Source: an uncultured Actinomycetes bacterium
GTDB lineage: Bacteria; Actinomycetota; Actinomycetes; S36-B12; UBA10799
Direction: 5' to 3'
Assembly: GCA_963842975.1 (NCBI GenBank)
Contig: CAWJIH010000007.1
Coordinates: 109 to 64,108, forward strand
DNA: 64,000 bases
The notes beneath the pieces are model-generated. The model worked only from the letters and a program-made list of their open reading frames with translations, did not search any database and was not told the origin of the DNA. Position 1 is the stretch's first letter; each line of letters opens with the position of its first letter. Both the position numbers and the translations under genes were made by a program. Positions 4,768 to 39,479 of the stretch are shown here, in pieces.

Positions 4768-5727
4768 ATGGGGACGGGGAGGATTGCGATGGCCGCTCGT
4801 GACGACAGCCTTGACGGTGGGCGTTCGGCAGATGACTCGACTGTGTCGGGTCCCGTGGTCCGGGTGGGGCGGGCATCGGACAACGACATCGTCGTGGGCG
4901 ACCTGCAGGTCGCCGGCCATCACGCGAGTTTCAGCAAGGCCTCCGACGGTTGCTGGCAGTTGCACCTCGAGCGCCGGGCAACCGCGTCGGTGAAAGGACA
5001 GCCCGCCCCGGAGCGTATCGAAGCGGGCACCACGGTCCGAGTGGGAAATGTGCCGCTGCTGGTCTCGGCGGACGGAGTTGCGGAGGTCGCCCCGTCGGAT
5101 CATGACCTGGTGGCGAGCGACCTGATGGTGATCAAGGACGGCCAGACGATCCTTTCTGACGTCTCCTTCGTCGTTCCCCCGAATTCGTTGGTGGCAGTCC
5201 TCGGGCCAAGCGGCTCCGGCAAGACGACCCTGCTGAACGCTTTGACCGGAGTGGCGCCGGCCGATTCCGGGGACGTGCTCTACTGCGGCACGCCGGTCTA
5301 CGACGAGTACGAGGACGTTCGTCGTGCGATCGGTCTGGTGCCGCAGGAGGACTTGCTGCACGCCACCCTCACCGTGGATCGAGCACTGTCGCTGGCTGCT
5401 CGGCTCCGGTTCGCTCCGGACGTCGAAGAGTCGGAGGTCGACCAGCGCATCGAAGAAGTGCTGGACTTGCTCGGTCTGTCCAAGCACCGCAGCAAGCGGG
5501 TCGGCCAGTTGTCCGGTGGGCAACGCAAACGTACGTCGGTGGCCATGGGCGCATCGGATAGGCAGCGCCTTCCGACGACCTGCCATGAGCCTTTCTGCAA
5601 GCCGGCAAGGCGAGTTCCCGGCTGCGGACTCATCTGCTTCGGGGAGCAACACGGCTCGCCTCCGGGCCACGGCATTGCTGACCCCACTCAGCGGGATCCG
5701 CGGTATCTTGCTGTTGCGTGTTCATGA
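4768..5727 (+). pseudogene. FHA-domain ABC transporter ATPase (Rv1747-like), truncated after the signature motif
   Basis: FHA motif VGRASDNDIVV..VAGHHA; Walker A GPSGSGKTT; LSGGQRKRTSVAM. Walker B and the permease are absent, and the sequence is unrelated after ~5550. Confidence 0.8.
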
Positions 5728-9004: not shown

Positions 9005-9223
9005 CGTGCAAGTCCTCTCGAGTCGGTTGTGGAAGATCACTCGAAGGATCATGTGACGACCGACATTGCTGTCGACCTTGCGCGCACCGTGGTGGCGGTG
9101 ACGATCGAAGTCCTCTTTGATTCCCTGGAATAGCGTGGAATATGACAATCTTGTGCTCAACCGGGCGAACGCACGTCAGCGCAACGAACGCATTGCACTT
9201 CCTCCACAGAATTGCGAGACACG

Positions 9224-10060
9224 ATGATCACGCTGGGTATTGACCTTGCTACTGAGCCCGCCAGCACAGCTATTGCGCGCATCAACTGGGGCGGTGAAAG
9301 GCCGGTCGTGATCGCGGTGTCACGTGGCGGTGCTCCCCGCGATGGAACCGACGCCAGTCACCTCGACGATGAAGATCTCGTTGAGTTGATCCGTGACACT
9401 GTCGACGCAGGCGGCACCGTGGGCATCGACTGCCCATTCGGCTGGCCTGAGACGTTCCGCACGATGATCACCCATCACGCTGAGGACACCCTGGACGCGG
9501 CAGACGATCATGACAGCCTGTGGCGGCAGAACAATGCCTACCGGCAAACCGATCTCGCCGTCGCCGAGGACGTCGCCGCGCACAAGAACGCCTCCGATGA
9601 CCCGCTCTGGCGCAAGAAGAACCCGCACACGATGAAGGGAAACCTCCCACTGAGTCCGGCCGCGGACCGTCTCAGCCTGACCACGATGAGACTCGCCGCA
9701 CTATTTGCCCGCCTGCGCGAGGTCGGCGTACCGGTGGACCGCTCCGACGTCCACGGGGCCGTCGTCGAGGTCTACCCCGCGGCATCACTGGCCATGTGGG
9801 ACCTGCCGAACAAGGGCTACAAGGGCAAGAAGAACGACAGTGCCGAGGTCCGCAAGTGTCTACTCCAGCAGGTCCTGATTCACATGGACATGGACGCCGA
9901 GTCTCAGGAGCTATGTACCGAAGTCCGACGATGCACTGGATGCCGTAATCGCTTCGCTGTCCGCCCGAGCGGCGCAGCTACACCAGGTGGCCCCAGTCCC
10001 CGACAATTTTCGGGCCCAAGCCCGGCGTGAGGGCTGGATCGCTCTGCCGACCAGTGGACT
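9224..10060 (+). CDS. DUF429 (predicted RNase H-fold nuclease) domain, frameshifted near 9925
   Basis: LGIDLA, GIDCPFGWP and EVYPAASL; the alternate frame gives DDALDAVIASLSARAA...EGWIALP. Confidence 0.75.
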
Positions 10061-12442: not shown

Positions 12443-12619
12443 GGTTTCTCCTTTGCAACAAGCAGGGGTGGTGCTCCGACCATAGCCGCACATAGGTCCC
12501 CGATTGCCGAATTGATGCTGGGTGAGGTCGGGCTTGCTCGAAACCCGACAGAAGCTGGGTGATTGACAGCGCAGGATTTGAACACACTTCACGGGCCCAA
12601 GCTCTAGCCGCCCGTAGAC

Positions 12620-14480
12620 TCACCAGGTCCAGTCGCGTGGTAGCTGGCCCAGATAGGTCAATTGTCCGTCCAAGAGTGTGGTCGCATGGCCGTCGCGGTC
12701 CACCCACACGCGGCCTCCCGAGGGACGGATCTTGAGCATCTCCTCTGCCAGGTGCGCCGCAACATGGCCATACTTTTCAGTCAGCGTTGCCACCGTTCGT
12801 GCAGTTCCGTCTGATGCGCCTCCCGGAATCGCCAATGCACGGGACTTGATCGATAGCACGAGAGTCTTGGATCCACGTGGCTCTGGCCACGGCTCCCCGG
12901 GGCGGATCCCCGCCGTTGGGTCAACAACTCGGAGTTGCTGACCCAAGATAGGTTCTGACGGCGTTTCCGAGTGACCAGAGACCGCGGTGTAAGTCTCAGA
13001 AGCGTCAGCAGCGTCTTGTACCGCCCAGGGTTCTTGGCAACGCACCAGGTCATCCGTCATCAGGAAGCGGACGATGTCACCTTCCCCGATGCGGTGGTGG
13101 CTTACCAAATGGTTGAAGAGACTCGACCAGCCGTACCACGTGCCGCCTTCGAGCCCAAGTCGCACATCGAATGCCACTGCATCGCAGCAGGCCACGTTGG
13201 GTCGCTTGTCACCGATTAGCGCGCGCAGTTCCTGATTGACTGTGACCACCCCCGACTTCAGGTAGTTGGTGCCCAAAGTCATGACCAGCTCGGTTCCGTC
13301 GGGCTCTGACGAATAGGCGATACTCGATGGGATCCGCATCGCCCGGGCGGCTCGTCGAAGAACGTCAGCTTCGTCAGGATCGATCTTTGCGCCGACCAAG
13401 TGGACCAGCCCCTGGTCCTTGCGGATGAGCGGCGAGAAACTCAGGTGAGAATTGATGCTGCCCACATTGCGGCCGTCCGCCCGTGCCCGGCGGAGGACTT
13501 CATCCACCGGTAGTACATAGTGCGGGTGATCGGACAAGAGCTCAAGCAGCCACAAGTCATTTCCCACGACAGCGACGTCGGGCGCATTTTCGGCGAGGAC
13601 GTAGCCAACACCTAGAGGTTTGATCACCTCAGCTTCGACTAATGCGGCCAGGACTGTCGCTTGTGGAGGGTGGGCGAAACGGCGCTTTCGCAGCACCCTC
13701 CCAATTCCCCTCGAATATCTCATCCCCAGTGAGGTTTCCGGCGATCTTCAGCTGGACGATGGCGGCATTTTCCACCGTTGTCGCCTTTTGTGTGCTGCAG
13801 AGTAGCCACGGCCCTACAACCGCGACGCGGGGGTAGACCTGCCTTGTCGCGGCCAGGACCTTATCCGCAGGAAGGGTCTGACCCTCAAGGCACACGGCTC
13901 GGACATCGAGAAAGCCAGATTTGTGACGTGTCTGGCGCACCGCACGCTTCACTTCGTCACTGACGATGGCTTGGCGTTCGCCTTCCGCCATACGACGCTC
14001 GAGTTCCAGCGAGAGGCCTTCGCGCCCATAAGCACTCAAGAGCTTCAGGATCCCGTCGGCTGACCACCGGCTTTCTGGGCTTGAAAGCCCGCTATCGATC
14101 AGAAGCTCAGTAACGTCAGCCGGCTCGTCCCAGTCAATGAGCTCAATGGCGTCAATGAGCGCTTCCGGAATAGGGCGTGGGTTCGGGTCACGAAACGACT
14201 CAGCCGCGAGCATCATTTGGCGGACCCGTTCGCGCGTCAGACCCAACGAGTCTCCGATTCTTGCGAGCGTCTCAGGCTCGAATCCCCAACCCCACCGACG
14301 CCTCAAGGGCGCAACCCACCTGGCCGGGTCACGCACTCCGGTGCGGGTTACGAGCTCTAGTGCCATGCGATGGGCGATCTTATCTAGTTCGCCGATCGAA
14401 TCCGGTTCGGAAGCGAGCTCATCAATCTGACCGTCCACATCCTCGCCAGTGAAGAGACGATCCCAGTTGACCACCATCAC
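12620..14480 (-). CDS. Sigma70-region-4-like HTH protein with C-terminal domain X; one frameshift at a G run near 13710
   Basis: ETLARIGDSLGLTRERVRQ helix-turn-helix. ORFs 13629..14480 and 12620..13723 join by removing one G in GAGGGGAATT. Start overlaps the GHKL gene stop. Confidence 0.7.
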
Positions 14481-16657
14481 CGGTCCTCAAGGGCTCCTTG
14501 GGCAACAGCGATGAGTCGCCCCGCCCTTTCGCGTTGTCTGTTTAGGACCCGAGCGGCATCCCAACTGAACTCTGGGCGTCGAAGCACTTCCCTTTCCACC
14601 AGCAAGTTTGCAAGCTCCAATCCGATCACCTCGGCCAGGACTGCCCTGGCAGCTGGGTCGTCCTCGCCCTTGTATCGCTCCTTCTTCTCGTCGTAGGGCC
14701 CGAGAAGACTCTTGAGGGTCTGGTGTCCTCCGTAGACGATGACATTCACACGCCCCTCCAGGTACTCGGCAGTGGCGCGTCGAACCGGGTGCGACTGCCC
14801 GCGCAGCTCAACGGTCAGATCAAGGCCTTGTGCCGGTGCACGCTCAACCACGTCGACTGTGCATGTGGCACGGCGGCCATCGTCAGCGACTGCACTGATC
14901 GTGACTGGCCCCAAGTGCTTGGTTGCCTCGACTCTGATCCGCGCTTCAACGTGACGGCCGTCGGTTGACGGCTGCATCGAATGAGAGGGCTGGGGAATGC
15001 TGACATTCGTGGGCTCAGCATGAACCTGAATCGATAGATCCAGGTCCGAGATTGGAGCGCGCAGGAGCAGGTTGCGGGCTCTTTCCGGGCTGACTGAGTA
15101 GCGCTGGCGTTCAAACCCGAGTTCGGTGACTTCAACCGCACCATGGTCCGAAGCCTCAACAACCACCAGCTCCGCGTATGCAACTGCGTCCCCTGATTGG
15201 GTGCGAAGTTGAGCTTCGCCGAGTTCGGTACCGGCGCTGATTCTGATTGTCGAGCTCATCGCCTCCAGACGTGGGTGGCGCCTCTGCTCACTCCCCGTTT
15301 GGGTGATTTCGAGTAGCCCGGCGGGGTTGCAGCGAACGATCTCAGCTTCAAAGGGGCGAGGAGTCGTCCCTGCGAGTCGGACTGTAAGAGTCCTCTCTTC
15401 ACCAGGGTGGAGGAAGAGTTTCGCCGGGATCACAGCAATCTCCGACACGTGGTCGGTCGAAGGACCAGGTCCGATGGGCTCAGCTTCGTCAATCTCGCGC
15501 AGCATCTCGCGCATCTGCATGCTCAAGGCCTTTTGGGCCGCCGCAAACGCGCGATTTAGGCGTTCGCCGGGCCGTCGGGCTCTGCCGCCGTCACCGGCAA
15601 GCCTGTCCAACACAGGCAGAAGTCTGATTGAGCACTGGCGCTGCAGTTCCTTGAAGAAGGGGTGCTCGCGGACAAGCCCGTCGCGATCGCGGGCAACGAG
15701 TCGTTGCGGGTTCTCTTCGGTTGCTTGGTCGTCATCGAAGGCCCTCACAAGAGCCTCGATTTGGGGTGCCACAACCTCGCCCGCAATCCAGCCTGCTTCA
15801 GGGCGCCCAGTGAACGAGAAGAGGGTGTTCTCGTACGTCGCGTTGCTTCCGGAGATGAGGATGCCGTGCTCGCTGTGATCCGTGAGCGGCTTTGTCACGC
15901 GAACCGGGAGTTTGCGAACGCGCAGCGAGACGTCCCCGTACGCCCCCACGGCGAATGCCGAATCAATTATGAGCTCGCCGCGGTCCTCGCGGGGCTCCAA
16001 CACCATGCGCTGGCCTGACTCCCTGGAGTCTGTCAAGAGCACTTCACGGCGCCGAAGCAGATTGCGCAGCTGCGCGTGGTCGCTGAGGCGTTCCACGAGG
16101 GCGGTCCGGCCAGGCACCTTCGTTGGCTTGGCGACAAAGACGGTCGCGGTTAGTCCAGCCTCGCCCCGGCTGAGTCCAAGGGCCTCCAGGATGCTTTCTT
16201 TTGGCAATGCATCGACAGGCTCGAGCAAGGACCAGTCGCCAACTCGTGTGAGGTCTAACCTATTGTACTTGCCCTCGCGCACTGCCTCAAAGCGGACGTG
16301 TCCCAGTGCAGCGACGTCCTTGGCCCCACGGCCAAAGAGGCCTCGCACCTGCCCGCCCCCCTGGAACTCCTCGTTGGTGCCGCCAAGGACGGCGAAACAA
16401 CTTTTCAAGCCCTCTGCGTCCAGACCCTTGGCCCTGTCGTGGACCTCCACAGCCCAGGGCATTCGCACGGTGTCGATACCGTCGCCCGCTGTTGTGGCAC
16501 GCACCACGATTTCAATCAGGTCTTGGCCGTCACCGTATGCATCGTCGGCATTGGTGATTAGCTCAACCAGGGCGCGCACGATGTCGCCGCGCATTGCAGC
16601 CATGGCGTCCTGTTCAAATGCTCTCTCGCCATACTCAACCCGCCCAGCCATTTTCAT
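14477..16657 (-). CDS. GHKL (MORC/Hsp90-like) ATPase with a long beta-rich C-terminal region
   Basis: Bergerat motifs ALVELITNADDAY, VHDRAKGL and RGLFGRGAKD; RBS GGAGGAG before ATG 16657. Confidence 0.85.
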   Translation of the reverse strand: MKMAGRVEYGERAFEQDAMAAMRGDIVRALVELITNADDAYGDGQDLIEIVVRATTAGDGIDTVRMPWAVEVHDRAKGLDAEGLKSCFAVLGGTNEEFQGGGQVRGLFGRGAKDVAALGHVRFEAVREGKYNRLDLTRVGDWSLLEPVDALPKESILEALGLSRGEAGLTATVFVAKPTKVPGRTALVERLSDHAQLRNLLRRREVLLTDSRESGQRMVLEPREDRGELIIDSAFAVGAYGDVSLRVRKLPVRVTKPLTDHSEHGILISGSNATYENTLFSFTGRPEAGWIAGEVVAPQIEALVRAFDDDQATEENPQRLVARDRDGLVREHPFFKELQRQCSIRLLPVLDRLAGDGGRARRPGERLNRAFAAAQKALSMQMREMLREIDEAEPIGPGPSTDHVSEIAVIPAKLFLHPGEERTLTVRLAGTTPRPFEAEIVRCNPAGLLEITQTGSEQRRHPRLEAMSSTIRISAGTELGEAQLRTQSGDAVAYAELVVVEASDHGAVEVTELGFERQRYSVSPERARNLLLRAPISDLDLSIQVHAEPTNVSIPQPSHSMQPSTDGRHVEARIRVEATKHLGPVTISAVADDGRRATCTVDVVERAPAQGLDLTVELRGQSHPVRRATAEYLEGRVNVIVYGGHQTLKSLLGPYDEKKERYKGEDDPAARAVLAEVIGLELANLLVEREVLRRPEFSWDAARVLNRQRERAGRLIAVAQGALEDR

Positions 16658-17248
16658 GCTGACATCTCCTCCCCGAAAATCACCGATTCTGCCGCTGACG
16701 CGAATGCAGCGAGGCTGTGGTCCTGCAACACTTGCCCTGCCCGGCGCACCTCTGACAGACGGCTGCGCCACGTCTCAGCTGGGCTTCCCGGAGAGCATTG
16801 GAGCGCATCCGCAATCTCGACGCGGGATGTTCGCCGACCTTCCGTCAACTCAGCAAAGGCGAAGCTCCCTTTCAAGTTTCGCCGGAGGGTTTCGTGGACG
16901 GCGGTTGGGGCACCTTGGACAGGCTGGGACCCACCGTATAGTCCCTGTAGCTGGGCAAGGTTGCGTTGACCCAAGCAACACCTTCGGGGGTCAATCGGCG
17001 AGACAAGGCGTGCGGTTTCGCGAGCAGTCCTGCGAGTTCCTTGGCTTCGACTGACTGCAGTGCTTTCGCGGTCTTCTTGTAGTCGGGAATCTCCGGATGC
17101 GTGCGCCAACCAAGTCGGGCTGGCGCATCTCGAAGGCCTTCAAGTAGATCTCTTCCACGTCAACATCCCGATCAGCACCCCCCAAGACATAGAGTGCCCA
17201 AACGAGAGCATCTTGGTTGTTTGCTCGTGAGCTTGCGTCCCTTGTCAT
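16654..17248 (-). CDS. Putative winged-helix protein (~200 aa), two frameshifts
   Basis: ALYVLGGADRDVDVEEIYLKAFEM / PARLGWRTHPEIPDYKK...LTPEGVAWV / HETLRRNLKGSF...EEMSA* lie in three frames; the stop overlaps the GHKL ATG. Confidence 0.55.
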
Positions 17249-17561
17249 ATGACCCCTCGGAAATGCAGTGCCTGTCATTTCGGAAATGCTTACGCGCTCT
17301 GAAAGGAGCGCTGGGCCTTTGATGCCCGGCGAACCTTATTCTAGTTGAGGGTTCCGACTGCCGCGGTCGCCATGAGAGACCGGTTGTTGACGTTCAACCG
17401 GTTGCCAGCAGCTCACCTCGTCAAACCGGATGGCGTTCGCTACTCCAGCTGTTTGAGTGGCATGCCGTTCTTGGCAGACTTGGGAATACGATCAAATCGC
17501 GGATCGAGCCATCGAAGGGGAACTCATGCCAAACGTAGACATTGGGCCATTGCGGATCCTG

Positions 17562-18093
17562 ATCGACGGCTGGCGAGCCAATACCGGACCATGGCCACCA
17601 ACCGGGCAACGGTGTAGTAGAGGGAACCAGCCACAATGCAGTCGCGCTGGCGCCTGGGGGAATAGCTCTCGACATCAGGTGTTTCTGGTACCCGGATGGG
17701 GGTGGAATCGTCGACTGCCCTTCTATCGGCACATCCCCGGCGGCTTTTGAAAGTATCCGGCGTGGCGCTCGAATGGGGGTGGTACGACGGTCGGATGGAG
17801 ATCTGGCTGTCACGCAATTCCGAGCCCTCAAGTTTGATGGTGCTCCTGACGGTGGTCGTCCCAGAATGATCACCGAGGACGATCTCGACGCTCTCGCCGG
17901 CGGTTCGGCGCGGGATCTCCTGATCGGTCTGGGTGCAACTGAATTGGGAGTCAAGTCAGAGGTGCTCGGCGTCAAGGGCAATGACCTTGTCCTCGCTTGG
18001 CCGCTCGAGGCGTCCCCGGTTGTTCCGTTTGTCGCGTATTCACTGACTCGAGTCATGCCGATCGTCCGGGCCCTAGACTTGGCTCACACATGA
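17562..18093 (+). CDS. Hypothetical protein, N-terminus disrupted or frameshifted
   Basis: Frame open from ~17562 to TGA 18093, which overlaps the next ATG (ATGA), indicating translational coupling. Confidence 0.5.
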
Positions 18094-19485
18094 GCGGAGC
18101 CAACCCGTTCAACGCGCACGTGCCCGCGGATGCTTCTCTGGGTCAGCTGAGCGCTTCAATGGATATCTTGATCAAGCTCGTGAGTTGGGAGCTCGGGGAG
18201 CACTACGATCGCGGGCTTTCGGTACTCGACTTCCCGCTAGGACCAGGTTGGCTTGAACGGCTGGGCGGCTGGCGCGGCGAAAGGTTCCGCCTGCATGACC
18301 CTTCATTCGTGTTTGCCGAGCCCGAGTTCCACCCCGACTCTGTGACGTGGCGCGTCCTGCCACCTCGAACTCCGGTTCTTGTTGACCAGTTGACCCGCGC
18401 ACGAAGAACGCGGAACTTCTGGGAACACCAAGCCGTCGACCAGGACCTCAATCGCTATGGCGAGAGCGTGCGTCGTTACCGGCAGCTTGCCGAGAGCCTG
18501 GGGCTTGAGTCGGTCGTTGACGTCTGCGACGAGCTTATTCGCGAGGTGAAGGCGATTCGCTTGCGAGGTGGAGCTCCCGCTCCTTCCTCAACCGGGGTCG
18601 TTGTGCAGTTGCAGGCACAGCTAGAGGACGCCGAGAAGGCTGTTGCAGAGGCACGCCGCGAACTCAACGAAAGGCAGTCGGAACAGGCGCGGCTGCAGGG
18701 CGATCAGGATCACAAACATGCGGAACTCAAGAAGCTGGTCGCAGCCAAGGAAGAGCAGTTGCTGCAGGCTCAGGATGATCTGACGCAAGTACGCGAGCAG
18801 CTGCAACTGATGCGCCAGGAGATCAGGCTGCAAGCGGTCGAAGAGGCCGAGGGTCTTGAGCCCGGCGAACCGTGGCGAGGTGCCCTCGGTTCTCGGGTGA
18901 TCTTCTTGAAGCCCCGGATGCGCGACCTTGTTGATCCGGAACTGGGAGTTTTGTTGTCGGACGAGCTTGGTCCTGTGGCGCGGGACGCGGCTCTTCGTTG
19001 GTTGGAGATTGAACCCGACGGTGGTCAGGTCCACCTCACGGCCGGTGGACACGCTGCCATCCAAAAGGGGCACTCGTTCCTGTACCTGGGTCAGCTGGAT
19101 ACGGCCATCAAATCCGTGGAGGAGGAGACCTCCAAGGCTGACGGTGGTAGCTCCGACGGGAACGGCTCCCTCCCGCGGGGAACGTGCTACGTCGACGCGA
19201 ACCCGGACACCTGGACAAGGCGCGCTGTTGCCGCACCAGCACGAGATCACCGCTGACAGAAAAGACATCTATCAGTACACGACCGAAAGACTACTTTCCG
19301 AGGTGCTCGGTCCCGCGGATGCCGAGTCGATTGCCGAGCAGCTTTGCGGTGACCTGACACCGGGCGAGCTCTTCCGTGTAACCAATGAGGGCGTTGTTTT
19401 GGCGAACAAGGGAGGCCAATACGTGCCACTGAGCCAGGTCGATCTTGACTACTGGTTCCGATGGGGGGAGACGCCGCAGTACTGA
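18090..19485 (+). CDS. Swt1-like HEPN domain, coiled coil, domain X and (after a frameshift near 19230) a second domain X copy
   Basis: Rx4H motif RNFWEH; heptad-rich QLQAQLEDAEKAVAEARRELNE... segment; PGEPW...GG.V....GHA...YLGQL. Frame 18928..19485 supplies LLSEVLGP...PG...VTNEG...GG...LSQVD. Confidence 0.7.
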
Positions 19486-19547
19486 GTGTCCTTGCCAACA
19501 GGTCGCACAGCAGCGCCAGAGGTTCGGCTTCCCCGGGCTTCTGTGAT

Positions 19548-21374
19548 CTAGGCCGGGCGCTTCCAGACTTGGCATGCGATCTTCGCGAGCTGGCCGGATC
19601 GCCTGTCGATTTCCTCCTCGTTCCAGATCTCATTCGCCACGATCTCGGCGTTGAGGGCCAAGACGGACTGCTTGCGCAGGGCCTCTCGCTTCTTGGTCCA
19701 CGCGGCGTTGCTCATTGAGGGGTTGAGGGCCTTCGTCACCAGCGTGAGGTTCCCGATGCGATTGACGTGGCGCTCGCGATTGTCCGTGGCCACGATCTTG
19801 GCTGCAGTGTCGGACCCTGAAACCGGCCACCTCGACTTCCAGGACCGTGGCATCACGTGCTCAATTGTCAGGGAGTCGTAGTCGAAGTGGGCATGCTCGC
19901 TCTTGCTCCGTCCTCGCTGCATATGGGCATCGATGGGGCCGAGAATCATGCGAATGCGCTCCTGGCTGACGCTGCCGTAGTAGCGCCTATCGGTGAACGA
20001 TTCCGCTAAATCCTTGTCAGTCGGCCAGTCCAATCCGTAAGGCTTGTTGAGCAGGCCTTGCACAACAGCCTCGGCCAAGTCGTCTTGTGGGCCAGCTGAT
20101 TTGGCGTGTTTGAGCACCTCCAGGAACGCCCGACCATATCCGCGAGTCTGCCCGCCCGCGATGAGTCGCCTCGTGACGAACGAGTCGATCGCCTCTGCTG
20201 CCCGTACGTGCTGTTCTTGTGGGAGCCGTTCCGGCGCTATGGTCCGCAACCAAGCCAGCAGTGGGACTGCGGTTGTGACACCGAGCTTTTCCATCCGGCG
20301 ATAGACCTCAGCGATGGCCGGAGGCATGTCGTTGGGACGCTCGTAGATCTGTCGGTACTCGCGTGCAAGATCATGGATGCTGGACAGGATCTCGGGCAGC
20401 TTCTCGGTGGTGTCGCGCAGATATACCCGGGCCTCTCCGTAGAGGTGCCCCAGGTTGACTTCGTCGGCCGTTTGGATGGTCAGCCAGGTGGCGAGAAGCT
20501 GGTCTCGCCGACCGCGGGACGCGTGTCCTCGCCCGATGTTCCCGCCCCACCAGTCCTGGTCGAAGGGTGCCCAATATCTGTCGTACAGTTCATCCACCTC
20601 AGCCTCACTGACCTCCGCGCGCATGAACAGGAGGTTCTTCACCAAGTCGGCGGCAGAGAGAGGAGTCTGCCGGCCATTCAGGACCTCGAAGATCAGCTGT
20701 GCATCGTCGAGGTTCTCGAGGTAAACCACGACTAGCTTGATCTTGTGTGCCAGCGCGTCCACGAGTGCGCCAAAGAATTTCTGGGCGTCTGTGCCAGCTG
20801 CGCCTGCGCTGTCGGCCGCGGCCTTGATCCGGTCCGCAAAGTACTGGCGTGCGGCGACATAGCGGTGTTCGGAGGTCGGGGTCGGACTCATGGCAGAAAC
20901 CCACTGTTGCCGGTCACGTCGGCGCGGCCAGAGTTTGTAGACCTCCTCTTCGTCGATGACGTCGTCTTCGTCGAGAAAGACCAGTTTGTGCACTTGCCGG
21001 GCACGGCGCTTCAGAGAATCGTCGATCATCGCATCAAGCAGGCCTCTGAGCAGCAAGTAGATAGTTGTGAGCCTTTGCTGCCCATCGATAACCCATGCTT
21101 CCTGGACGTGTGCACCTCGTGCTTGGAGCACCTGGAGGACGATCGCACCGAGGAAGTGAGGGGCCACCGTGGCGTCATCGTTGGTGGGATCGGCGCCACG
21201 TGCCTCGGCGGTCTCCCGAGCCCTGACCAGCCGGTCGGTCACATCAAGCACGTCGTCCATGAGGAGTTCCCATTGGCCCTCCTCGGTCCATTCGTAGTCA
21301 CGCTGATAGGTGGGGATCAGGTGTCGTCGATCCAGGTTCAGCAACCCACCCAGCGCCACGTCTTCAGCCTTCAT
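19548..21374 (-). CDS. gmrSD: GmrSD-family (DUF262 + DUF1524) modification-dependent type IV restriction endonuclease
   Basis: IPTYQRDYEW, VIDGQQRLTT, IFEVLNGR..PLS, TIEHVMP and NRIGNLTLV...NPSMSN. Confidence 0.92.
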   Translation of the reverse strand: MKAEDVALGGLLNLDRRHLIPTYQRDYEWTEEGQWELLMDDVLDVTDRLVRARETAEARGADPTNDDATVAPHFLGAIVLQVLQARGAHVQEAWVIDGQQRLTTIYLLLRGLLDAMIDDSLKRRARQVHKLVFLDEDDVIDEEEVYKLWPRRRDRQQWVSAMSPTPTSEHRYVAARQYFADRIKAAADSAGAAGTDAQKFFGALVDALAHKIKLVVVYLENLDDAQLIFEVLNGRQTPLSAADLVKNLLFMRAEVSEAEVDELYDRYWAPFDQDWWGGNIGRGHASRGRRDQLLATWLTIQTADEVNLGHLYGEARVYLRDTTEKLPEILSSIHDLAREYRQIYERPNDMPPAIAEVYRRMEKLGVTTAVPLLAWLRTIAPERLPQEQHVRAAEAIDSFVTRRLIAGGQTRGYGRAFLEVLKHAKSAGPQDDLAEAVVQGLLNKPYGLDWPTDKDLAESFTDRRYYGSVSQERIRMILGPIDAHMQRGRSKSEHAHFDYDSLTIEHVMPRSWKSRWPVSGSDTAAKIVATDNRERHVNRIGNLTLVTKALNPSMSNAAWTKKREALRKQSVLALNAEIVANEIWNEEEIDRRSGQLAKIACQVWKRPA

Positions 21375-24300
21375 CAGCCATCACCCAATCCCGTCCCTGC
21401 ACGGCCATCCAGGCGATCAGGTGCACATCGCTCGGTTCTAGATGCTCCAGGGGTTCAGCACCCATGACGGGCTGCAAGCCCGCCGCCTCCACCAGCTCCT
21501 TGACCATGCGTATCTTCTCGCCGGGTTCCACGTCGCTTCGCATCGCGTTGCGAACCTCGCGCAGTACCCGTTCGGGCGGATTGGCGTTGAGGCGGTTGGA
21601 GAGCTCACGCTGCTCGCCTGGGGAGAGCACGAGTGCGCCATGGTCGGCCACTAGGTCAGCAGCGTCCCGCAGCGCCTTTGGCACATCGGGCAGCAACGCT
21701 GCCGGGTCGGTCAACTTCAGCCAGTCGCCCAATGCGGCGCTGCTAGCGATGCCCCATGCCTCGAAGGCCCCCTCGAATGCAGAGTCGGGGAGGTCACGAA
21801 GCGTATCCGGGACGCCCGGATCGGCCGTGATCAGGCAGGTTAAGGTGTCGTCGTCAATGATCGGCCGTTGTGTCGCTGAGGCGTCAGTCCCGGTCTCCGG
21901 GTCAGTATCAAACCAACCCTCGCCAGCCATCTCCTCGGTCGCCGGCCGCCAGGTGCCAGGCTCCACAGGGACGAACCTGAACCAGGGCGTGTCGTGCTCT
22001 CCCATCTTGATGCAGAAGACGTATCCGCTGCGGGCGGCTCGGGGGTTCACAAAGCCACTGCCGGACATCCAGGGCAGCTCCTCGACGGCTTGTGCCGTGA
22101 ACGGATCGGCCAGAGCTTGGGCCAGCCGGCGTCGATATTCCTCACCTGATAGGGCCGCAGAGGCTCCGCCGTTTTCGAAGAGCTGTGGATTCTCAGCGCG
22201 CAGTTGCTCAATTTGCTCGCGAGTGTCTCGCAGGTTGACCTCGAATTTGCTGTGGAAGCCCGGCAGCACCTCGCCGGTGCCGATTGCCGCGTCTGCGTAG
22301 GCCAGCTTGCGTTGCAGCGCCTCCTCGAGCCCCAGAAGTGCATCCAGGTGCTGCGACGGGAAGAAGCAGCCCAGAACGACCGTCGCATGTTTGCTACCGA
22401 TGCGATCGATCCGTCCGTGGCGTTGCACCAGGCGCATCGGGTTCCAGGGCAAGTCGTAGTTGATGATCCGCCCGGCCTGCTGCAGGTTGACGCCTTCGGA
22501 GAGCACGTCGGTGGTGAACAGCAGGTCGAACACGTCCTCGCTCAAGGGGGTGCCGTCCGGCGCCAATTTTCCCGCGGTCTCAGGAGCGAAACCGGCAAGC
22601 ACTCGTGCCCGGTGACCCTGGTCCACACCCGTCTTCTGACCCTTGATGGTGTCGGCTATGCGGTCACGGTAATCCGAGAGCGGATCGTCATCGGGTGCGG
22701 CTGCGACGGCCGCCGATACCCGCTCTGCGACGTCGTCGATGGTGTCCGCATAGGACGAGAAGATCAGTACCTTTCTGCGCGCGGACGAGGAGAGGCCAGT
22801 ACGGTCAGTCGACCGAGCTTCGGTGGCGATGGATCTCAATTCCTCCACCAGTCGCTCAGCTTTTGGGTCCGCGCCAGTGCAGGCGACGTCGGCCAGCTCG
22901 CGCAATTTCTCCAGCAACACCAAATCGGCCTCGACGTCGTCGTAGAGCGCGTCACCGTGGTAGTCCTCGATGTCGGTCACACCCTCGGCTGCGTCGGTGT
23001 CAAGGGAGGCAACCCACTGATCGAGGTCCTCGTCCTCGCTGCCCGTCCAGTCGCGCAGGGCCGTGCCGGTCAGGACGTAGCCCTCATTGACGGCCGCAAG
23101 GAATTGCCGGTGGCCGGCTAGCAGAGTGCCCAAGGTGCGACGCAGCGCCGCGGGGCTGGACTCCAAACGCTTCAGGAGTGCCGATCGCAGCAGCCCGCTG
23201 TTGGAGATCTGGTAGTTGGCGAGCTCGCCGTCAAGCAAGTAGGCGCTCGGCGTGTAGCGCGCCAGCATCAATCGTCCGGGGTCGGCCTGACGATCTGCGT
23301 AGGGTGACACAAGAGGGGCGTGATCTGGAACCTCCAGCGCGTAAACCATGGCGTCCAACAGCGCGGCACCGGCCTCGTCGAGCTCGTAGTCCACGCGCTT
23401 GGCCCGTGGCGTCGGGAAGCGGATAGTTGCTTTCGAACCATCCGGCATTGTGATCTCATCGTTGGGGTAGAACTGTTTGACGAACTTGCGGGTGCGACGC
23501 ACAGCCACCTGGTCCATCAGGTCGAAGAGGTGCTCGGGCGACAGCGAATCCGGCTCCATCGATTGGGCTTCGCGAATGTAGTCGCGGATACTCGGAATCC
23601 CCAAGCCCACAAAAGCCGCGTCGTCTCGCACGAAATACCCGATGAGCGTGTGCAGGTCCATCAGCGAGTTGTTCACGGGGGTTGCGGTGAGCAAGACGAC
23701 CTTCTTTGGGTTCAGTCCCGCCACGAGCCGGTATACCGCCGCTGATCGCTGCGCGTTGGGGTTGCGCAGGTTGTGGGCTTCGTCGATCACCACGAGCGCG
23801 TAGTCGTCGAGCTCCTCAAGGAACTGCTCATGGTCGGGGTTGTCCTCGGCGCTCTTGAGTCGCAACTCGTCGTAGGACATGACATCGACCCGGCGGGAGA
23901 AGTCGAACCGTCGCAGGAACGGCTCCCACATGCTTTCCTTCAACGCAGCTGGGCACACGATAAGCACCTGCTGTCGGTCGATGCTGGCGGCTCTGGCGAT
24001 CACTTCGCCCGCCAGGAACGTTTTGCCCAGCCCAACCTCGTCGGCTACCAGGACGCCACCGAGGGACTCCAGAAGTCGAGTCATCCGGGCCACACCATCG
24101 AGCTGGAATCCCGTGAGGTCCAACACTGTTCGTGGCGATCCTCATCGCCCATGGAATCCGCGTAGAGCTCCTTGAGCATGCGAATGAAGACGATCCATGG
24201 GTCGTGCGGTTCCCACGTGGCCTCGTAGATCGCCGCAAGGTCGTAGGGTTCGGACTGGTTCCACAGTTCGTCGAACCACTCGCGCACGAGCTGGACGTAG

Positions 24301-24884
24301 CCGCCGCTGCCGGCGGGGTAGCCTAGGTTGAGTTCAGCGTTGCTGCTCAGGCCGGCACGGGTGAAGTTGCTGGAGCCTGCCAGCACGGCGGGTAAGGCGT
24401 CGTGGTCGGCGATGTAGGCCTTGCCGTGCAGGAAACCCTCGGTGAAGCGACGGACTTCCACCATTGGGCTGCCATCCCCACTTCTGCTTTCAGCCAGGCA
24501 AGGAAGCGCGCTGTTACTTCCACGTTCTCGCGGCTGAAGCCAAGGAGATCACGTTCCATGGCGAGCCAATGCAGGTGATTCTCAAGGGCGTCGTCAAGTT
24601 TGTCGTCGCGGTCGGCTGAGGACAATTCGATCGCGCGGTCAGTGGCGGGGTCGGGTTCCGCACCCAAGAGAAGCCGCACACGGGGAGTCTCTCCAGCTCG
24701 GCAGCCAGCAGCGAGAAGCCGCCGGGGTTGATGTAGGCCGTTGCGATGGACACGTCGGGCGGGTTGGCGAGCTGCTCGCGCATGCCTTTGAGCATGCGGT
24801 TGATCTCGCCTGCAACCGTCTCACCGCGGTCATGCCGGTTGGTGGCGAAGACCGGGGGAAGGTTGAAAGGTGGTCGTCAGTCAT
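21364..24884 (-). CDS. PLD-nuclease/SNF2-helicase fusion (DrmD-like helicase), four frameshifts in the 5' 800 bp
   Basis: IATAYINPGG; HKD-like LHGKAY...GSSNFT.AGL..N.ELN; ADEVGLGKT, DEAHNLRN, TATPVNN, SEGVNLQ and QRHGRIDRIG. Start overlaps the methylase stop. Confidence 0.85.
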
Positions 24885-27800
24885 CCGTGGTCCCCGAGGT
24901 TGTGGTCCAGTTGTCGAAGTGGGTCAGGGCAGCATCTAGCCGTGGCCGGTAGTCCCAGCCCACGTGGAAGGTTTCGAAGATGTGGGTGAACTGTTCACGG
25001 GTTAGGCCGTAGAGAAGGCCGACGAGGGCATCGAGTTCGGCGATGAGGTCGTCCTTCTCGGCCTGATCCGTCACCGATCCGACCGGTACACCGACTTCGG
25101 CGGCCCATGCCTCGTATCGGTCATCCACCGCAGCAAGGCGGCCGGAGATCTCAACGACGCGCTGCCTAAGGGGATCGTCGCCGCGGGCCGCGGGACAGGG
25201 AAAGCGCTCAAGGAGAGTGAAACTCATTGTGGTCTCCACGAATCGTCGGGCGTACCAGTCAATCGGCAGACTGCGACATGACACCAAGTAGAAAGGCCTC
25301 GTCCTTCGGCCAGCCCTCGCTGCTTGAACAGGTACGGCGCCTTGTGCACCACTGCGACCCCGGGTGGAATCAGAGCGCACAGCAGCGTGCGTGAGTCGGT
25401 GGCCCGTGCCACGTCACGGAAAGCGATTCGTGCGCGCTTCATCGGCAGCGTCTCCGGATCATTGGCCCACTCTCGGCGCATCCCGTAGAAGGCGGAGGAT
25501 GCCAGCCTGATCTGCCGTTGCCGCCTGGCCTGCAGTAGGGCCTCGATTTCGGCTGGGTTGGCATAGGCATAAGGCTGACCGAAGTCTGGGTCCCAGAGGT
25601 TGAAACTTGCCCCAGTCAGTACCGGGAGGGTGTGGTCCTCTGCGGGATGCTGCACGTCGAAGTCGAAGTACGCCTTCTCTTTTGTCGTATCCGTTTCCCG
25701 GTGTGGGCGGAACTTCCACCCGCCTGTTTCGCTCCCGAAGTTCGGATGTGTCCGCATCTGCGCGAAGATCGGTAGGGATTCGGCATCAGGCAGAAGTGGA
25801 AACGCAGCTGTGTCTGTCCAGCTGAGGACCTCCTCTGCGGGAAAGGTAGAGACGGCAGCCGGGTCGGCCATGCCAGCGAGAAACGCCTCGCGGGAGTTGT
25901 AGGGACCCTGTAGTGCCACCGTCCGGGTGCCGGTGCCGCCGCGCCTGTAGGAGAGAGCAGACACCGTGTACTGAGGGTGAATCGATGGGAAAACCCACTG
26001 GCGATTATTGACGACCATCGCCAGATCGACGATGTCGCCATCTCGCATCAGTTCTCGGCGCCATAAGGCACAGGCGGATCCGGCGAATGCTGTGCGCGGG
26101 AGCACGACGCCGATCATTCCGCCGAACCGGATGCCGTTCAGGAAGCGCCATGCGAAAGCCGCCATGAGATCTATGTCACCTGCACCAATCCCAGGGTAGG
26201 GACCCGCCTTGACCAAAGCTGCGGTCGCCTTCGCCTGGGCAAGTTCGCTTTCGTAGGCAGCCCCAAGGTCGGGACGTTCGGCCTCATAGGACGCGATCGC
26301 TTCGTTCTTGTCCTTCTGGCTCATCGACCTAAGACCAGGAAAGCGAACAGCCCACCACGCGTGCGTCTCAACCTTGAGCTTCTCCCAAGGCGGATTCCCG
26401 AGGATGACGTCGAAGCCCGGGTTCTCGCGGAGGAAGACTTCGGGAAATAGGTAGGGGAGGTGCGCCGGATCCGCAGCTGCGACCTCCTTCGCCACCGCTC
26501 GTTCGGTGGCCAATTCTTGGAGGTCTGCGGCCTCGGTGACTGAGCCCGGGTCGATAAGGTTGAGCCGGGTGGCGACCACGGCATCGAACAGAAGCTTGGC
26601 CGGCTCGGCTGTAGCCATTGCCTCACGAATGGCCTCGGCATTGTGACGCGCGTCCGCTTTCGTCGCCTCTGCCGAGTTGGATGCCTCGACCAGAAGCTCC
26701 CGAGCGGCGTTGAGTTCATCCCGGATGGCGTCGCTGTATATCGATAATTGGCCCCCAGTTGCACCTGGATCCAGAACGCCGAGCGCTTCCTCAATGGTGC
26801 CGACCCCGGTGAGGGAGTTGCCCGCGACGAGGTTGTGGTCCAGCGTGCTCATCGGAAGGCCCGGAACGAACGTGGTGATCCAGATGGCCAGGCGAGCGAG
26901 CTCGACAGCCATGGGGTTGATGTCAAGGCCGTAGATGCATCGGCGGGCGATTTGACGGCGCAGCAGTTGCGCGGGGTCAACCTCATCTGCCGCGGAATCG
27001 TCACCGAGCGCGGCTCTGGCCGCCTCGTCAAGAGCCCTCAGCTCGTCAGCGATGGACGGCAGCGGGTGCTCGGTGAGGAAGTCGCGCATGGCGGCTTCGA
27101 GGTGGTCTATGGCGGCGGTGAGGAAATGCGCTGAACCCATGGAGAGGTCGGCGACGCGGAAGTCGAAGAACGCCGCAGACGCCGCCGCCTCGTCGCCATC
27201 GTCCATGAGCGTCTGGATGCGTTCAAGGTGAGCAGTCAAGGCGGGATCGAGTGAGCGCTCCAGCAGGTGCTCAACGATGATGTGCGGCGTGAAGTAGGTT
27301 CCGGTGGCCTTGCGTTCGCCGGACTTGGAGTGGAAGTAGACCCCGCCTGCCGGGATAACAACCTCTTCGCCAGGCTTGGGGGGTGCATAGATCTCCTTGG
27401 TCTTGCCCTTCTCCTTGACAGTTGTGACCGTCAAGTCGCTAGGTGCGAGGGAGAGCGAGGACTCCAGCAGCCCCTCGTAGATGGTGCCGAATTCCCGAAC
27501 CGACAGCGAGCGGAAGTCGACGGGCCCTGCACCGCCTCCTGTGAGGTCATCAACGAGAAGGGCCCTGAGTACGGGTCCCATGACATCGTTGCTGATCCGG
27601 ATGGAGTCCAGCAGGGCTCCCTCGGCGTGAAGGTCGGCATCTGTGCCAAAGAGACCGCCGTTGTAGGCGGGTACGTTCCAGTCCTTGTCGCCGGAGTCGA
27701 TGACCCTCCACACCTGAGCGAGGTCGTCCCAGAGCGAAGTTGAGTCTGCCTCGAATGCCTGGTGTGGGTTGGCAGCCAAGTCTTTCGCGCGGGTCTTGAG

Positions 27801-29040: not shown

Positions 29041-30309
29041 TCATTCGCCAGGAAGGCCGATCAGGGCCCAAGAAGTGAGCGCGGCCGTGAGGCCTTTGAG
29101 GTTCTGCGAGCGAGCCTGCGGGCCGAAGGTGCCGACGTCGAAGTGCTCCTTCGTAGCCGCTTGACGGTTCCAGATGCTGCGAGCGGTGATCGGTGCCTTC
29201 ATGTGGGGGGAGAGGCGTCGAAAGAAGTCGGTAATCTGGGCGTCTGTGAGCCCCGCCTCGCCGCCGGTGCGGGCCGAAATGTTGTGGTAAACGCCTGCCA
29301 GAACACGCAGCATGGTGACGGACCCGAGCAAGCTCCTCTTGCGCAGGTCCGCGGGCGATAGGCGGCCATCCGCCACCGCGCCGAGGTCTTCGAAGCCAGC
29401 CGTCAGTGAGTCGAGGAAGGCATCTGTGTTGCTGACGAGTTGATCCTCGGTGAACTCGTTCTCGCGTTGTTTGCCGATCCGCCCTACCACCCCCACGTTC
29501 ACGGCGCGGATGATGTCGGCGACGTGCTTGGCCCCAACCAGGTTGGTGTTGGAGCCAACAACTCGGTCGTTTTCCAGGTCTACCCGATTCGTGAGGAGAC
29601 TGTTCTCAAGGACGCGGTCGAGGGAACGGTTGACGATCTTTGTGCTGTCGAACTGCACGCGGATTGCCTGCTTGATGCCGAGGGCATTGTCGGCAACGTC
29701 AAAGAACATCTGTTCGTACTGCTGCGGGAAGCGTTCCTCGTAGACAACAACGGTGAGACTTTCGCCGGTCAGTCGGTCGAGGATTTCCGTGAGGTTGGAG
29801 AGCTCGGCGTCGGCTGTGCTGGCCGCAGACATGTCCCCGCGGTACTCAGCTGCGGCCCGCTGTTCGGTGGCCCTGTCGATCTCGCGACGAAGTTCCTTCA
29901 GGATCCAGCTGAGGCCGAAGATGCGATGTTGGCCGTCGATGATCTTTAGGGTCTCCGAGGCGTTGGCGGGCACTCGCAGATAGCCCAGGGTGAGTCCGCC
30001 AGCAAGGTCGGAGATCTTGTCGAACTTCAGAGTGCCAGCGTCCCTCAGAAGGATCGGGGGAGCCACCCACGCCGGCTTCGCGCGGAGATACTCCCCGAAC
30101 TCCCGAGCGTGCTTCTCGTTTACTCGTCGGTTGCCCGGGGTTGGCCGTGCGGGATCTGGGATCGGCAGGAGTCGTGCTGCGTCCCTGAGCGAGAGGTTGA
30201 ATGTGAGGGTTTGCCGGCCGCCTTGCACCCCGGCGATTGCGAGGTAGGTCTCGACTTCTGTGTGAGGAAGGACCTCGGCAAGATCCGAGACCGTGATTGG
30301 GCCGTCCAT
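29041..30309 (-). CDS. DGQHR-domain (DndB-like, ParB/Srx superfamily) protein
   Basis: IIDGQHR motif, NRRVN..HA..F..YL and QMFFDVADNA. Confidence 0.88.
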   Translation of the reverse strand: MDGPITVSDLAEVLPHTEVETYLAIAGVQGGRQTLTFNLSLRDAARLLPIPDPARPTPGNRRVNEKHAREFGEYLRAKPAWVAPPILLRDAGTLKFDKISDLAGGLTLGYLRVPANASETLKIIDGQHRIFGLSWILKELRREIDRATEQRAAAEYRGDMSAASTADAELSNLTEILDRLTGESLTVVVYEERFPQQYEQMFFDVADNALGIKQAIRVQFDSTKIVNRSLDRVLENSLLTNRVDLENDRVVGSNTNLVGAKHVADIIRAVNVGVVGRIGKQRENEFTEDQLVSNTDAFLDSLTAGFEDLGAVADGRLSPADLRKRSLLGSVTMLRVLAGVYHNISARTGGEAGLTDAQITDFFRRLSPHMKAPITARSIWNRQAATKEHFDVGTFGPQARSQNLKGLTAALTSWALIGLPGE

Positions 30310-30431
30310 GGCGCTCCTAAAAATTTGTTGCCGTCTTGTGGAATAAATAAAATCTTGTTCATGCTACAGTGGTGTCACTGATCGCAACTTAAAGTTACCA
30401 GAACACCGCCGAGGTGGACGAGAGGAAACCC

Positions 30432-35336: not shown

Positions 35337-35593
35337 CCGCCCCGTCACCTCTCCCCGAATCACGAATCCTTGTCATGGTGACACAGCACTCCGACGGGCT
35401 GGCCACCACGAATCCATCAATCGGCCACCGGCAGACGGTCGAACACGTGGGGGGCGAATCGATTCGGGACTGGCTCCCGCACTCCATCACGCCGTGGTTG
35501 GAACCTCCAACGAGGTTCCAACCCAACTGCCGGGGGCGGAATCGGTCATGCCCGGGAGCAGCCTGGCATTGAGTGATTCGCGGGAGGCGAGAG

Positions 35594-39200: not shown

Positions 39201-39479
39201 GGGGATGCCATCGATGGCTCGGCGGATCAGGGTCGACATGTGCAGAGATAGACGGTCCCCGGCCTCAGCGACGCGAAGGTCGCTGACGTCGGGGTCGTGG
39301 GCGGAGGTAGCCGCCAACCGGGCGGCAAGGTCCGGCGTCAGGAGGTCCTCGTACAACCCTGGGGTGAGGGGAGCAATGCTGGGAGTTTCCAGTGACGCAG
39401 GCTTGGCGCCCGCGTTTGCCGATTCAGTCGAATTGTCCCCCAATTCCTCCACGGCGCCAGCATCGCAGAGGCATGGCAA
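36225..39479 (-). CDS. PLD-nuclease / SF2 helicase / DUF3427 protein (start codon uncertain)
   Basis: RLHAKSWLF...GSSNLT (HKD-like), ATGTGKT, DEFHH, GLTATPERADG, SEGVDVP, QQLGRGLR and C-terminal YRDYAI..LLHWESQS. Confidence 0.9.
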   Translation of the reverse strand: MPCLCDAGAVEELGDNSTESANAGAKPASLETPSIAPLTPGLYEDLLTPDLAARLAATSAHDPDVSDLRVAEAGDRLSLHMSTLIRRAIDGIPEADRVERGAAITRALGEQLIAAADRADLKRDLMTDNAEVLRGVHPRLPDGSTHSVDQPLTPLLDTVLLTNPRGEPALSKQLLSEIPSADRIDLIIAFIRYSGIRPMLDALRRHVDEGRELRILTTTYTGSTEARALEVLAELGAKIRVSYDTTTTRLHAKSWLFHRRSGASTAYIGSSNLTHSAQVAGLEWNVRISGRRNPDVIASTSAVFESYWASADFVDYDPAAFAQALATDLPDHRTDLPPFELTPHPFQERLLERIEVARAHGRHRNLLVAATGTGKTVMAALDYARLRQRLPRARLLFVAHRKELLQQSLATFRHALREPAFGELWVDGKRPTRYEHVFASIQSMRTNGVESIDPAHFDVVVVDEFHHAAADSYDAMLQQLQPVELLGLTATPERADGMPILHWFDDRIAAELRLWDAIDQHRLVPFAYYGIHDGTDLSNVAWRRGRGYDDTELTNLYTGDDAYARRVVHQLTKHVGDPTTMRALGFCVSKDHARFMARHFTAAGIAAVAVTADTPRAERETALAHLRSGDVQALFSVDLFSEGVDVPSVDTVLMLRPTESGTVFLQQLGRGLRKSPDTGKAVCTVLDFVGHHRKEFRFDLRYSALLGGTRLRVKQEVTKDFPYLPSGCHMQLDPVAREVVLESIRSAIPSNWPARVAELRRYAASQRGAPVTLSGYLAETGLDLGDVYLDDRRARTRGQASWTDMKSAAGLAVAPAGPFEPTLRHAVGRMTHVDDEVRLAAYRRFARSSTVPDVASIGAADRALLRMLVASLMDQVLKGDRRDLTLQEAAELLWQHPAVLAEVAELMDLLRERVDHLHRPLDGRAHVPLQVHAQYTRGEILAAMHQEAKSSGSPGAARVPEWREGVRWCADQQTDLFLVTFDKSADHFSPTTRYRDYAIGPKLLHWESQSTTSSTSPTGQRYQNHAARGSHIYIFARQDNTARSFYFLGPATYASHEDDRPMAITWELMHSLPGDLLAAFAAAA

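Follow-up and report, generated by a model that had tools for sequence, protein, structure and literature searches.

Why should the same small domain, matching no named family, occur on two genes that are transcribed away from each other in a bacterial defence island? The question is raised by a 64,000-nucleotide (nt) stretch of DNA from an uncultured Actinomycetes bacterium (contig CAWJIH010000007.1 of assembly GCA_963842975.1, positions 109 to 64,108), which we call the window. Its locus region, of ~62% GC, is set in a dense defence island. One of the two genes encodes a sigma70-region-4 protein and belongs to a cassette of three genes, A, G and S; the other encodes a HEPN protein with a coiled coil. 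We find that they share a genuine alpha/beta domain of ~85-95 residues that has no name, here called X, and that the association between the HEPN-coiled-coil-X gene (HEPN-CC-X) and the A-G-S cassette is real and recurrent, but facultative. The best explanation overall, to which we would give an even chance, is that X serves as a non-catalytic docking or sensing head of HEPN-CC-X, coupled to A-G-S or to its trigger. The features on which the argument rests are listed by window position; other loci are numbered with L, and homologous proteins with P.

12626-12916, minus strand: X1, copy 1 of domain X (hidden Markov model, HMM, envelope), at the C-terminus of S, ending in PxDWxW as S-type copies typically do
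12620-14480, minus strand: gene S, sigma70-region-4 helix-turn-helix (HTH) protein with C-terminal X, in two open reading frames (ORFs; 13629-14480 and 12620-13723), HTH at ~14214-14267
14477-16657, minus strand: gene G, GHKL (Bergerat-fold)-like ATPase of ~727 amino acids (aa), intact, assigned by its motifs, N-box ELITNADDAY at 16535-16564
16418-16444, minus strand: G1 box of gene G
16316-16345, minus strand: G2 box of gene G, RGLFGRGAKD
16690-17278, minus strand: gene A, first gene of the cassette, in three frames in the window, located by tblastn with the gene A proteins of L006, L009 and L001
18090 (ATG) to 19485 (stop), plus strand: gene for HEPN_Swt1-like domain, coiled coil, X and second copy X', frameshifted at 19130-19144
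18090-18587, plus strand: Swt1-like HEPN domain (family HMM match), with RNFWEH (Rx4H) at 18411-18428
18576-18840, plus strand: coiled-coil linker of ~90 residues, whose only Pfam and PDB matches, all weak, are to coiled-coil families, and whose position is conserved in homologues
18843-19112, plus strand: X2, copy 2 of domain X, inside ORF 17997-19256 (BLASTP and outside HMM)
19216-19458, plus strand, frame +1 past the frameshift: X3, copy 3 of domain X, of the diverged second-copy type, with a YWF tail (HMM envelope)

Are the three copies genuine? X1 and X2 align over 99 residues at 33% identity (BLASTP, E=6e-11), and an HMM free of the window copies recovers both among 1690 six-frame segments (3.7e-32 for X1 and 6.6e-12 for X2). 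These pairwise and leave-out statistics rule out chance similarity or low complexity as the source of the resemblance. Pairwise, X3 reaches E=0.069 against X2 and does not match X1, and it scores 0.087 under the general outside HMM. Under an HMM of the second tandem copies from P0003 and P0004, it is the best non-training segment (E=2.2e-4), and profile-profile comparison places its subfamily in register with type-A copies (E=1.1e-3, with a probability of 20% only). In P0017, an intact orthologue of at least 435 aa whose first 317 residues are 83% identical to the window protein, both X copies lie in one frame. The AlphaFold model of the P0017 tandem gives both halves a predicted local distance difference test score (pLDDT) above 90, with an equal order of strands and helices in the two copies. 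Taken together, the second-copy profile, the P0017 orthologue, the profile-profile alignment and the structure model indicate that X3 is a diverged copy of X. An HMM search found no further copies elsewhere in the window.

These results agree with a preliminary description of the window, which had read an ~85-aa domain three times in two divergent genes, with a frameshift between the second and third copies. The frameshift is seen when P0017 is mapped onto the DNA, its residues 1-317 falling in frame +3 and its residues 317-435 in frame +1. The positions given earlier were right for X1 and X2, whereas the HMM envelope of X3 begins ~75 nt before the start that had been assigned to it. A sigma70-region-4 protein with a C-terminal X had also been correctly recognised, though its ORF is split in the window. 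The intact homologues P0002, P0034, P0035, P0071 and P0040 are single proteins of 612-825 aa, and the 626-aa P0002 spans both window S frames in tblastn.

How large is the family, and does it have a known relative? When 1.84 billion cluster representatives were searched exhaustively with HMMER, 208 protein clusters passed E<=1e-3, of which 95 also passed E<=1e-10. Named members are called 'hypothetical protein' throughout, or are named after their helicase part only, and the identifiable hosts are Actinomycetota (Nocardioides, Cellulomonas, Kineococcus and Candidatus Nanopelagicaceae). Two matches, P0081 (a DUF5050 propeller) and P0149 (3251 aa), are probably false; only the beta4-beta6 part was matched in them, repeatedly. 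The X region has no match in Pfam-A 2025, NCBIfam 20 or PADLOC 2.0, searched with the window proteins and, for Pfam, also with 91 HEPN-type and ~30 other members. A profile search of PDB sequences gave a best E of 0.39.

The AlphaFold2 model of X, made from an alignment of 149 copies, has a pLDDT of 93.5 and a predicted template modelling score (pTM) of 0.84. Its topology is beta3-alpha2-beta3, that is, three strands, two helices and three strands. Foldseek with this model returned nothing from PDB or BFVD at E<=1e-3 or at a template modelling (TM) score above ~0.5, the best matches standing at E ~1 in PDB and E 0.29 in BFVD, with TMq<=0.35 in both. A resemblance to sliding clamps or beta-propeller blades came up in three Foldseek runs, in each case below threshold, and we do not count the clamp likeness as evidence. 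The domain had been put forward as one without a name, and the sequence and structure searches bear this out, as X matches no family in the databases named above.

The conservation of X offers a first indication of its role. The near-invariant positions are Gly, Pro or hydrophobic (G5, W8, P63, G65, G66, G74 and G88), and the conserved positions, which are mostly structural, also include L19, L43, A76, Y86 and L87. Polar residues R62, R67 and D71 are kept in 57-66% of copies and change together in the subfamily that contains window X2. The mean net charge is 0.07 (standard deviation 4.3). Judged by sequence, this profile fits a binding module better than an enzyme or a generic nucleic-acid binder.

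The same data bear on the possibility that X is a nucleic-acid-binding accessory domain, by which RNases, helicases and HTH proteins would be directed to a given feature in DNA or RNA. The partners to which X is fused do act on nucleic acids (HEPN RNase, superfamily 1 and 2 (SF1/SF2) helicases, the sigma-region-4 HTH and the Lsr2 DNA-binding domain), the RPxGGR loop of X is moderately conserved, and Foldseek matches to DNA sliding-clamp domains, albeit weak, recur. However, X is not basic, the loop arginines are lost in whole subfamilies that include window X2, and a fusion to TPR repeats does not suit such a role. Nor are the clamp matches significant, with TM scores of 0.15-0.35; the best match of the tandem X-X' model is a beta-clamp at E 0.018, probability 0.18 and TM 0.15. 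We consider a nucleic-acid-targeting function distinctly unlikely.

Which proteins carry X? Among ~115 members with enough N-terminal sequence, 91 (~80%) share the N-terminus of the window HEPN protein. About half of these HEPN-type members have a single X and half have X-X', in which X' is a distinct subtype that ends in EWFPG or YWF. PF18731 (HEPN_Swt1) is matched at E<=0.01 by 12 of the 91 N-terminal homologues (best 3e-6), and the RNxxxH motif is near-invariant, with R139 and H144 present in at least 90% of the 91. The window protein has no PF18731 match at E<=0.1, and the L004 protein reaches 20.4 bits against a cut-off of 27.5. The HEPN label of the preliminary description thus finds no Pfam match in the window protein itself, but it is supported by the homologue family. 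The main home of X is the C-terminus of these Swt1-like HEPN proteins, which are predicted RNases, past a coiled coil of ~90 residues.

The sigma-region-4 protein with X, the S-type architecture, accounts for 7-9 clusters. In other proteins X stands N-terminal to an SF2 helicase, as in a DISARM-like helicase cluster of Nocardioides koreensis; X or X-X' is C-terminal to SF1/UvrD-like helicases; X-X' is followed by TPR repeats; and X is followed by an Lsr2 DNA-binding domain (P0124/P0126, Kineococcus). The domain is always terminal or sub-terminal. The cluster in N. koreensis JCM 16022 (L003, 55-15099) has the X-SF2 helicase together with a DEAD-box helicase, an MrfA-Zn-binding (DUF1998-like) protein, UvrD, PDDEXK_13 and NERD-UvrD, and is a DISARM-like helicase island. 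A PDDEXK_13/REase-ARP nuclease gene lies within a few kb of X genes in three independent neighbourhoods (L003 12378-13361; L010 6748-7602; L011 201-1055; L012 10896-11801).

On the minus strand of the locus, A, G and S make up a conserved three-gene defence-island cassette, in which A has ~200 aa in intact homologues, G is a GHKL-like ATPase of ~730 aa and S is the sigma70-region-4 HTH protein. G matches Pfam HATPase_c at E=0.009, which is below the cut-off. It has the N-box (ExxxNxxD) and the G1 (DxGxG-like) and G2 (GxxGxG) boxes, and residues E70, N74, D77, D112, G116, G144, G147 and G149 are invariant among six homologues that are 40-78% identical. Searches with G found nothing in PADLOC, NCBIfam or PDB sequences, and no nuclease domain was recognised in it. 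The window S matches Pfam Sigma70_r4 (PF04545) with 27.8 bits against a cut-off of 24.1, and so do P0002, P0040 and the S of L029; profile and sequence searches of PDB with G and S gave nothing beyond the sigma-region-4 HTH. PADLOC 2.0 has no match for the A, G, S or HEPN-CC-X protein of the window, nor for the A and HEPN-CC-X proteins of L029. The S of L029 (11359-13599) has a weak PADLOC match to MzaA at the HTH (66 residues, E 2.3e-6). Mza is a candidate system that also has a MutL-like GHKL ATPase.

How widespread is the cassette, and does it always carry X? A profile scan with the G alignment found at least 447 G relatives in metagenomes. The best 80 of these at least 447 loci, chosen as the best matches to window G, were annotated with HMMs. 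A, G and S are present in all 80 wherever the contig allows. S ends ~14 residues past the shared region in these loci and has no X, with the one exception of L022, which is the same contig as L008. X is fused to the S C-terminus in a minority of cassettes, and the window carries both forms, divergently transcribed.

A GmrSD gene adjoins A-G-S in 20 of the 80 loci, mostly as a co-directional fourth gene directly after S. It is downstream of S in L049, L050, L059, L064, L065, L072, L074-76, L079-81, L084, L087 and L091, and upstream of the cassette in L029 and L032. UvrD, or an N6_N4 methylase with a ResIII nuclease, takes the place of GmrSD after S in some loci. The gene position after S looks like a variable effector slot.

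Is the HEPN-CC-X gene linked to this cassette? It stands beside A-G-S in 23 of the 80 metagenomic loci. In 20 of them HEPN-CC-X, or its X end at a contig edge, directly precedes A, from which X is separated by ~110-130 nt; in two it is downstream of S, and in one a partial X is convergent. L020/21 has a HEPN-CC-X-X' gene, 45% identical to P0017, that is followed directly and co-directionally by A, G and S. An early sample (L001-L019) had led us to regard the two X genes as unlinked, a view that was reversed by L020/21 and the metagenome scan. Both partners also occur alone. S-X cassettes in L006-8, L009, L013-15 and L016-18 have no second X or HEPN-CC-X in the available flanks, and HEPN-CC-X genes in L002, L004, L010-12 and L019 have no cassette.

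It could be argued from such loci that the window genes are unrelated island neighbours that share a promiscuous domain and have no functional coupling, given that most HEPN-CC-X genes and most cassettes occur apart and that the island is densely packed with other systems. However, these are two rare families, and they nevertheless adjoin each other in 23 of the 80 cassette loci, as well as in the window and in L020/21. Their gene order is tight and often operon-like. Across the 80 loci, L020/21 and the window, they are found in four arrangements (H-X-A-G-S, A-G-S-H-X, divergent and convergent, H being HEPN), spread over G proteins that are only 31-48% identical to window G. A purely incidental neighbourhood is very unlikely in our view. 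The earlier proposal that the HEPN effector and its sigma-region-4 partner are functionally linked is favoured by these gene neighbourhoods, and the placing of X in defence-island proteins is confirmed by them.

Several points nonetheless weigh against too firm a reading of the link and of X itself. The 80 loci are redundant: they fall into 38 clusters at 90% G identity, of which ~5-6 have HEPN-CC-X, and for this reason we call the link facultative. Loci with and without HEPN-CC-X occur inside a single G cluster of at least 90% identity (for example, L047 and L048 versus L029-L044). This implies recent gain or loss of that predicted RNase gene, and the adjacency could therefore partly reflect shuffling within defence islands. 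The window HEPN protein lies below Pfam thresholds. Finally, the view that the fold of X matches nothing solved is provisional, as it was judged with a predicted model against PDB and BFVD.

What might X do for the proteins that carry it? In the docking or sensing explanation, HEPN-CC-X would dimerise through its coiled coil, and X at the far end would bind either the A-G-S machine or a phage-derived trigger handled by A-G-S. A signal of this binding would pass along the coiled coil and bring together the composite Rx4H RNase site, whereupon cleavage of RNA would arrest the infected cell. In the fusions with S, helicases, TPR repeats or the Lsr2 DNA-binding domain, X would perform the same binding function in cis. 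X is found on a cassette-linked effector or fused to S, a Rosetta-stone pattern, and therefore may contact the cassette or its trigger; it is also the sole candidate regulatory domain of HEPN-CC-X proteins that stand alone. We rank docking or sensing by X first, above the nucleic-acid-binding reading and the homotypic one considered below. A shared sensor, which the preliminary description had offered as its alternative, comes close to this explanation.

The other proposal made there was a homotypic adaptor, similar to an effector-associated domain (EAD), in which the X of S would bind X or X' of the HEPN protein and the A-G-S core would recruit or polymerise the HEPN effector. X is indeed small, terminal and non-enzymatic, and it is found on core-like proteins (S, helicases, TPR proteins and the Lsr2 DNA-binding domain) as well as on the HEPN effector, in line with EAD criteria 1 and 2 (Kaur et al., 2020; PMC7159879). 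Both proteins carry it in the window and perhaps in L020/21 as well, where S is truncated by the contig end. The tandem X-X', or a single X behind a dimerising coiled coil, hints that X acts in pairs. Native Lsr2 has an oligomerisation domain N-terminal to its DNA-binding domain, and in P0124 it is X that is placed at this site, a hint of self-association.

Nevertheless, S has no X in any of the 23 linked metagenomic loci, and contact between the X of S and the X of HEPN therefore cannot be the general means of coupling. The S-X cassettes named above have no second X in their available flanks, and HEPN-CC-X is adjacent to ~20% of S-X and X-less cassettes alike. The two window copies are not specially matched: X2 ranks 69th of 148 in similarity to X1 (34.5% versus a median of 33.3%), and X1 ranks 44th for X2. 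In the P0017 tandem model X is not confidently packed against X' (pTM 0.58), and there are ~90 HEPN-CC-X clusters versus ~20 X-bearing core-type proteins. The homotypic adaptor fails on the X-less S, on the ranks of X1 and X2 and on the tandem model, and we think it unlikely. The NTPase-centred conflict architecture that had been suggested with it does not hold either, as no STAND or similar protein was seen and the associated ATPase is GHKL-like.

Taken together, these observations lead us to prefer the docking or sensing model for X. A bolder statement would be that HEPN-CC-X and A-G-S form an undescribed, widespread actinobacterial immune system, in which X would link an RNase of abortive infection to a DNA-bound sensor driven by ATP; this is possible, although we hold it to be doubtful.

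An important caveat is the state of the genes in the window. At least eight single-base frameshifts lie within window positions 12600-25300, called against intact relatives; five of them (16965, ~13710, 24137, 24486 and 24690) were resolved at the DNA level.

~17126 and 16965-16968, minus strand: frameshifts in gene A, with AA versus AAA at 16965 (DNA alignment)
~13710, minus strand: frameshift in S, +1 base, GGGG versus GGG in L001 (DNA alignment)
19130-19144, plus strand: frameshift in the HEPN gene (P0017 mapping)
24137, 24486 and 24690: frameshifts in the PLD-SNF2 gene, net -3, frame restored
25167-25293: frameshift at the C-terminus of the type IIG/DrmMI-like methylase

Three of the five breaks resolved in DNA fall in short homopolymers (16965, ~13710 and 24690), and G and GmrSD, which lie between broken genes, are intact. 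We had considered decay of this system alone, an idea that was withdrawn in view of the three further frameshifts in the SNF2 gene and the one in the methylase. The breaks are either assembly indel errors or island-wide decay. Because frames are broken in the window, our functional conclusions rest on the intact orthologues.

Two further features adjoin the HEPN gene.

17773-18093, plus strand: possible ORF of 106 aa, unconfirmed, whose stop overlaps the HEPN ATG (ATGA)
19548-21374, minus strand: GmrSD-type type IV restriction endonuclease, intact (Pfam GmrSD_N and GmrSD_C; PADLOC Orf5 1e-89 and HEC-06 1e-55)

The 106-aa ORF has a coding-like GC1/GC2/GC3 of 0.73/0.47/0.61, and the other loci gave no homologue of it; the ORF may encode a small partner or an antitoxin-like protein, or may be spurious. 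Beyond GmrSD come the PLD-SNF2 helicase gene and then the type IIG/DrmMI-like methylase gene. Farther along the island, a DndB-like gene (29041-30309) is divergent from the gene for another GHKL ATPase (30414-32486; HATPase_c_3, MORC-like), which has no PADLOC match. A 574-aa protein (33639-35363) matches PADLOC HEC-07 at E 2e-13, and a protein with PLD, SF2 helicase and DUF3427 domains (36225-39479) matches a type IV methyl-directed restriction enzyme at E 2e-251. Upstream of the locus are an FHA-domain ABC-type ATPase and a DUF429 protein (4768-5727 and 9212-10030).

If the proposed role of X is correct, the domain would provide a way into the activation of a large class of HEPN RNases, a step that is less well understood than any other for most HEPN defence toxins. 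Freshwater Actinobacteria, which are difficult to grow in culture and whose immunity has been little mapped, have the GHKL-ATPase cassette in abundance, and current catalogues of defence systems do not list it. As X is small and confidently modelled, and intact orthologues exist, work on its structure, its ligand and phage challenge should be straightforward.

How does this locus compare with known systems? The closest analogy for HEPN-CC-X appears to lie with HEPN abortive-infection or toxin RNases that have an appended regulatory domain, which its non-catalytic C-terminal module would resemble; like them, it is a single gene in or near restriction-like and Hma/DISARM-like loci. The Swt1/Abi2 clade of HEPN proteins has been described (Anantharaman et al., 2013; PMC3710099), and HEC-08 consists of a DUF3644-HEPN with zinc fingers (bioRxiv 10.1101/2024.01.29.577857). 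In HEPN-CC-X the C-terminal module is instead X or X-X', preceded by a long coiled coil, and these two sources describe neither feature. The 'embedded' candidates of the latter provide another parallel, in that HEPN-CC-X lies beside Hma/DISARM-like and GmrSD genes.

EADs resemble X in that X is small, terminal and non-enzymatic, is found on effector and core-type proteins, and occurs mainly in Actinobacteria (PMC7159879). For an EAD, one copy is on a core component and a second on an effector, usually in an adjacent gene, and two copies encoded side by side should be each other's closest relatives (PMC7159879). X, in contrast, is paired in adjacent genes only exceptionally (in the window, and possibly in L020/21), and such adjacent copies are not each other's closest relatives. 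Its core proteins are a GHKL-like ATPase and HTH proteins rather than vWA-MoxR, STAND or GTPase proteins, and most EADs are all-alpha, whereas X is beta3-alpha2-beta3.

The comparison with GmrSD, BrxU and HEC-06 rests on the window GmrSD, which matches PADLOC HEC-06 and Orf5, and on the position of GmrSD as the fourth gene of many cassettes, which parallels embedded defence genes. The difference is that GmrSD has no X, and its link to the cassette is one of neighbourhood only. MORC-like ATPases reportedly occur in restriction-modification contexts, as Iyer and colleagues are said to have noted in 2008. Both these ATPases and the GHKL-Shedu protein VcSduA (PMC12137116) appear analogous to G in their Bergerat-fold motifs, their defence-island setting and their coupling to nuclease effectors. 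G differs in that it has no recognisable nuclease domain and is always flanked by A and S. In literature searches on Swt1/HEPN, the coiled coil, GHKL with GmrSD, and Mza, neither X nor the A-G-S cassette was seen described. Set beside these systems, X is a new domain and probably a new accessory module, which may act by the mechanism proposed above, and A-G-S is a candidate new cassette.

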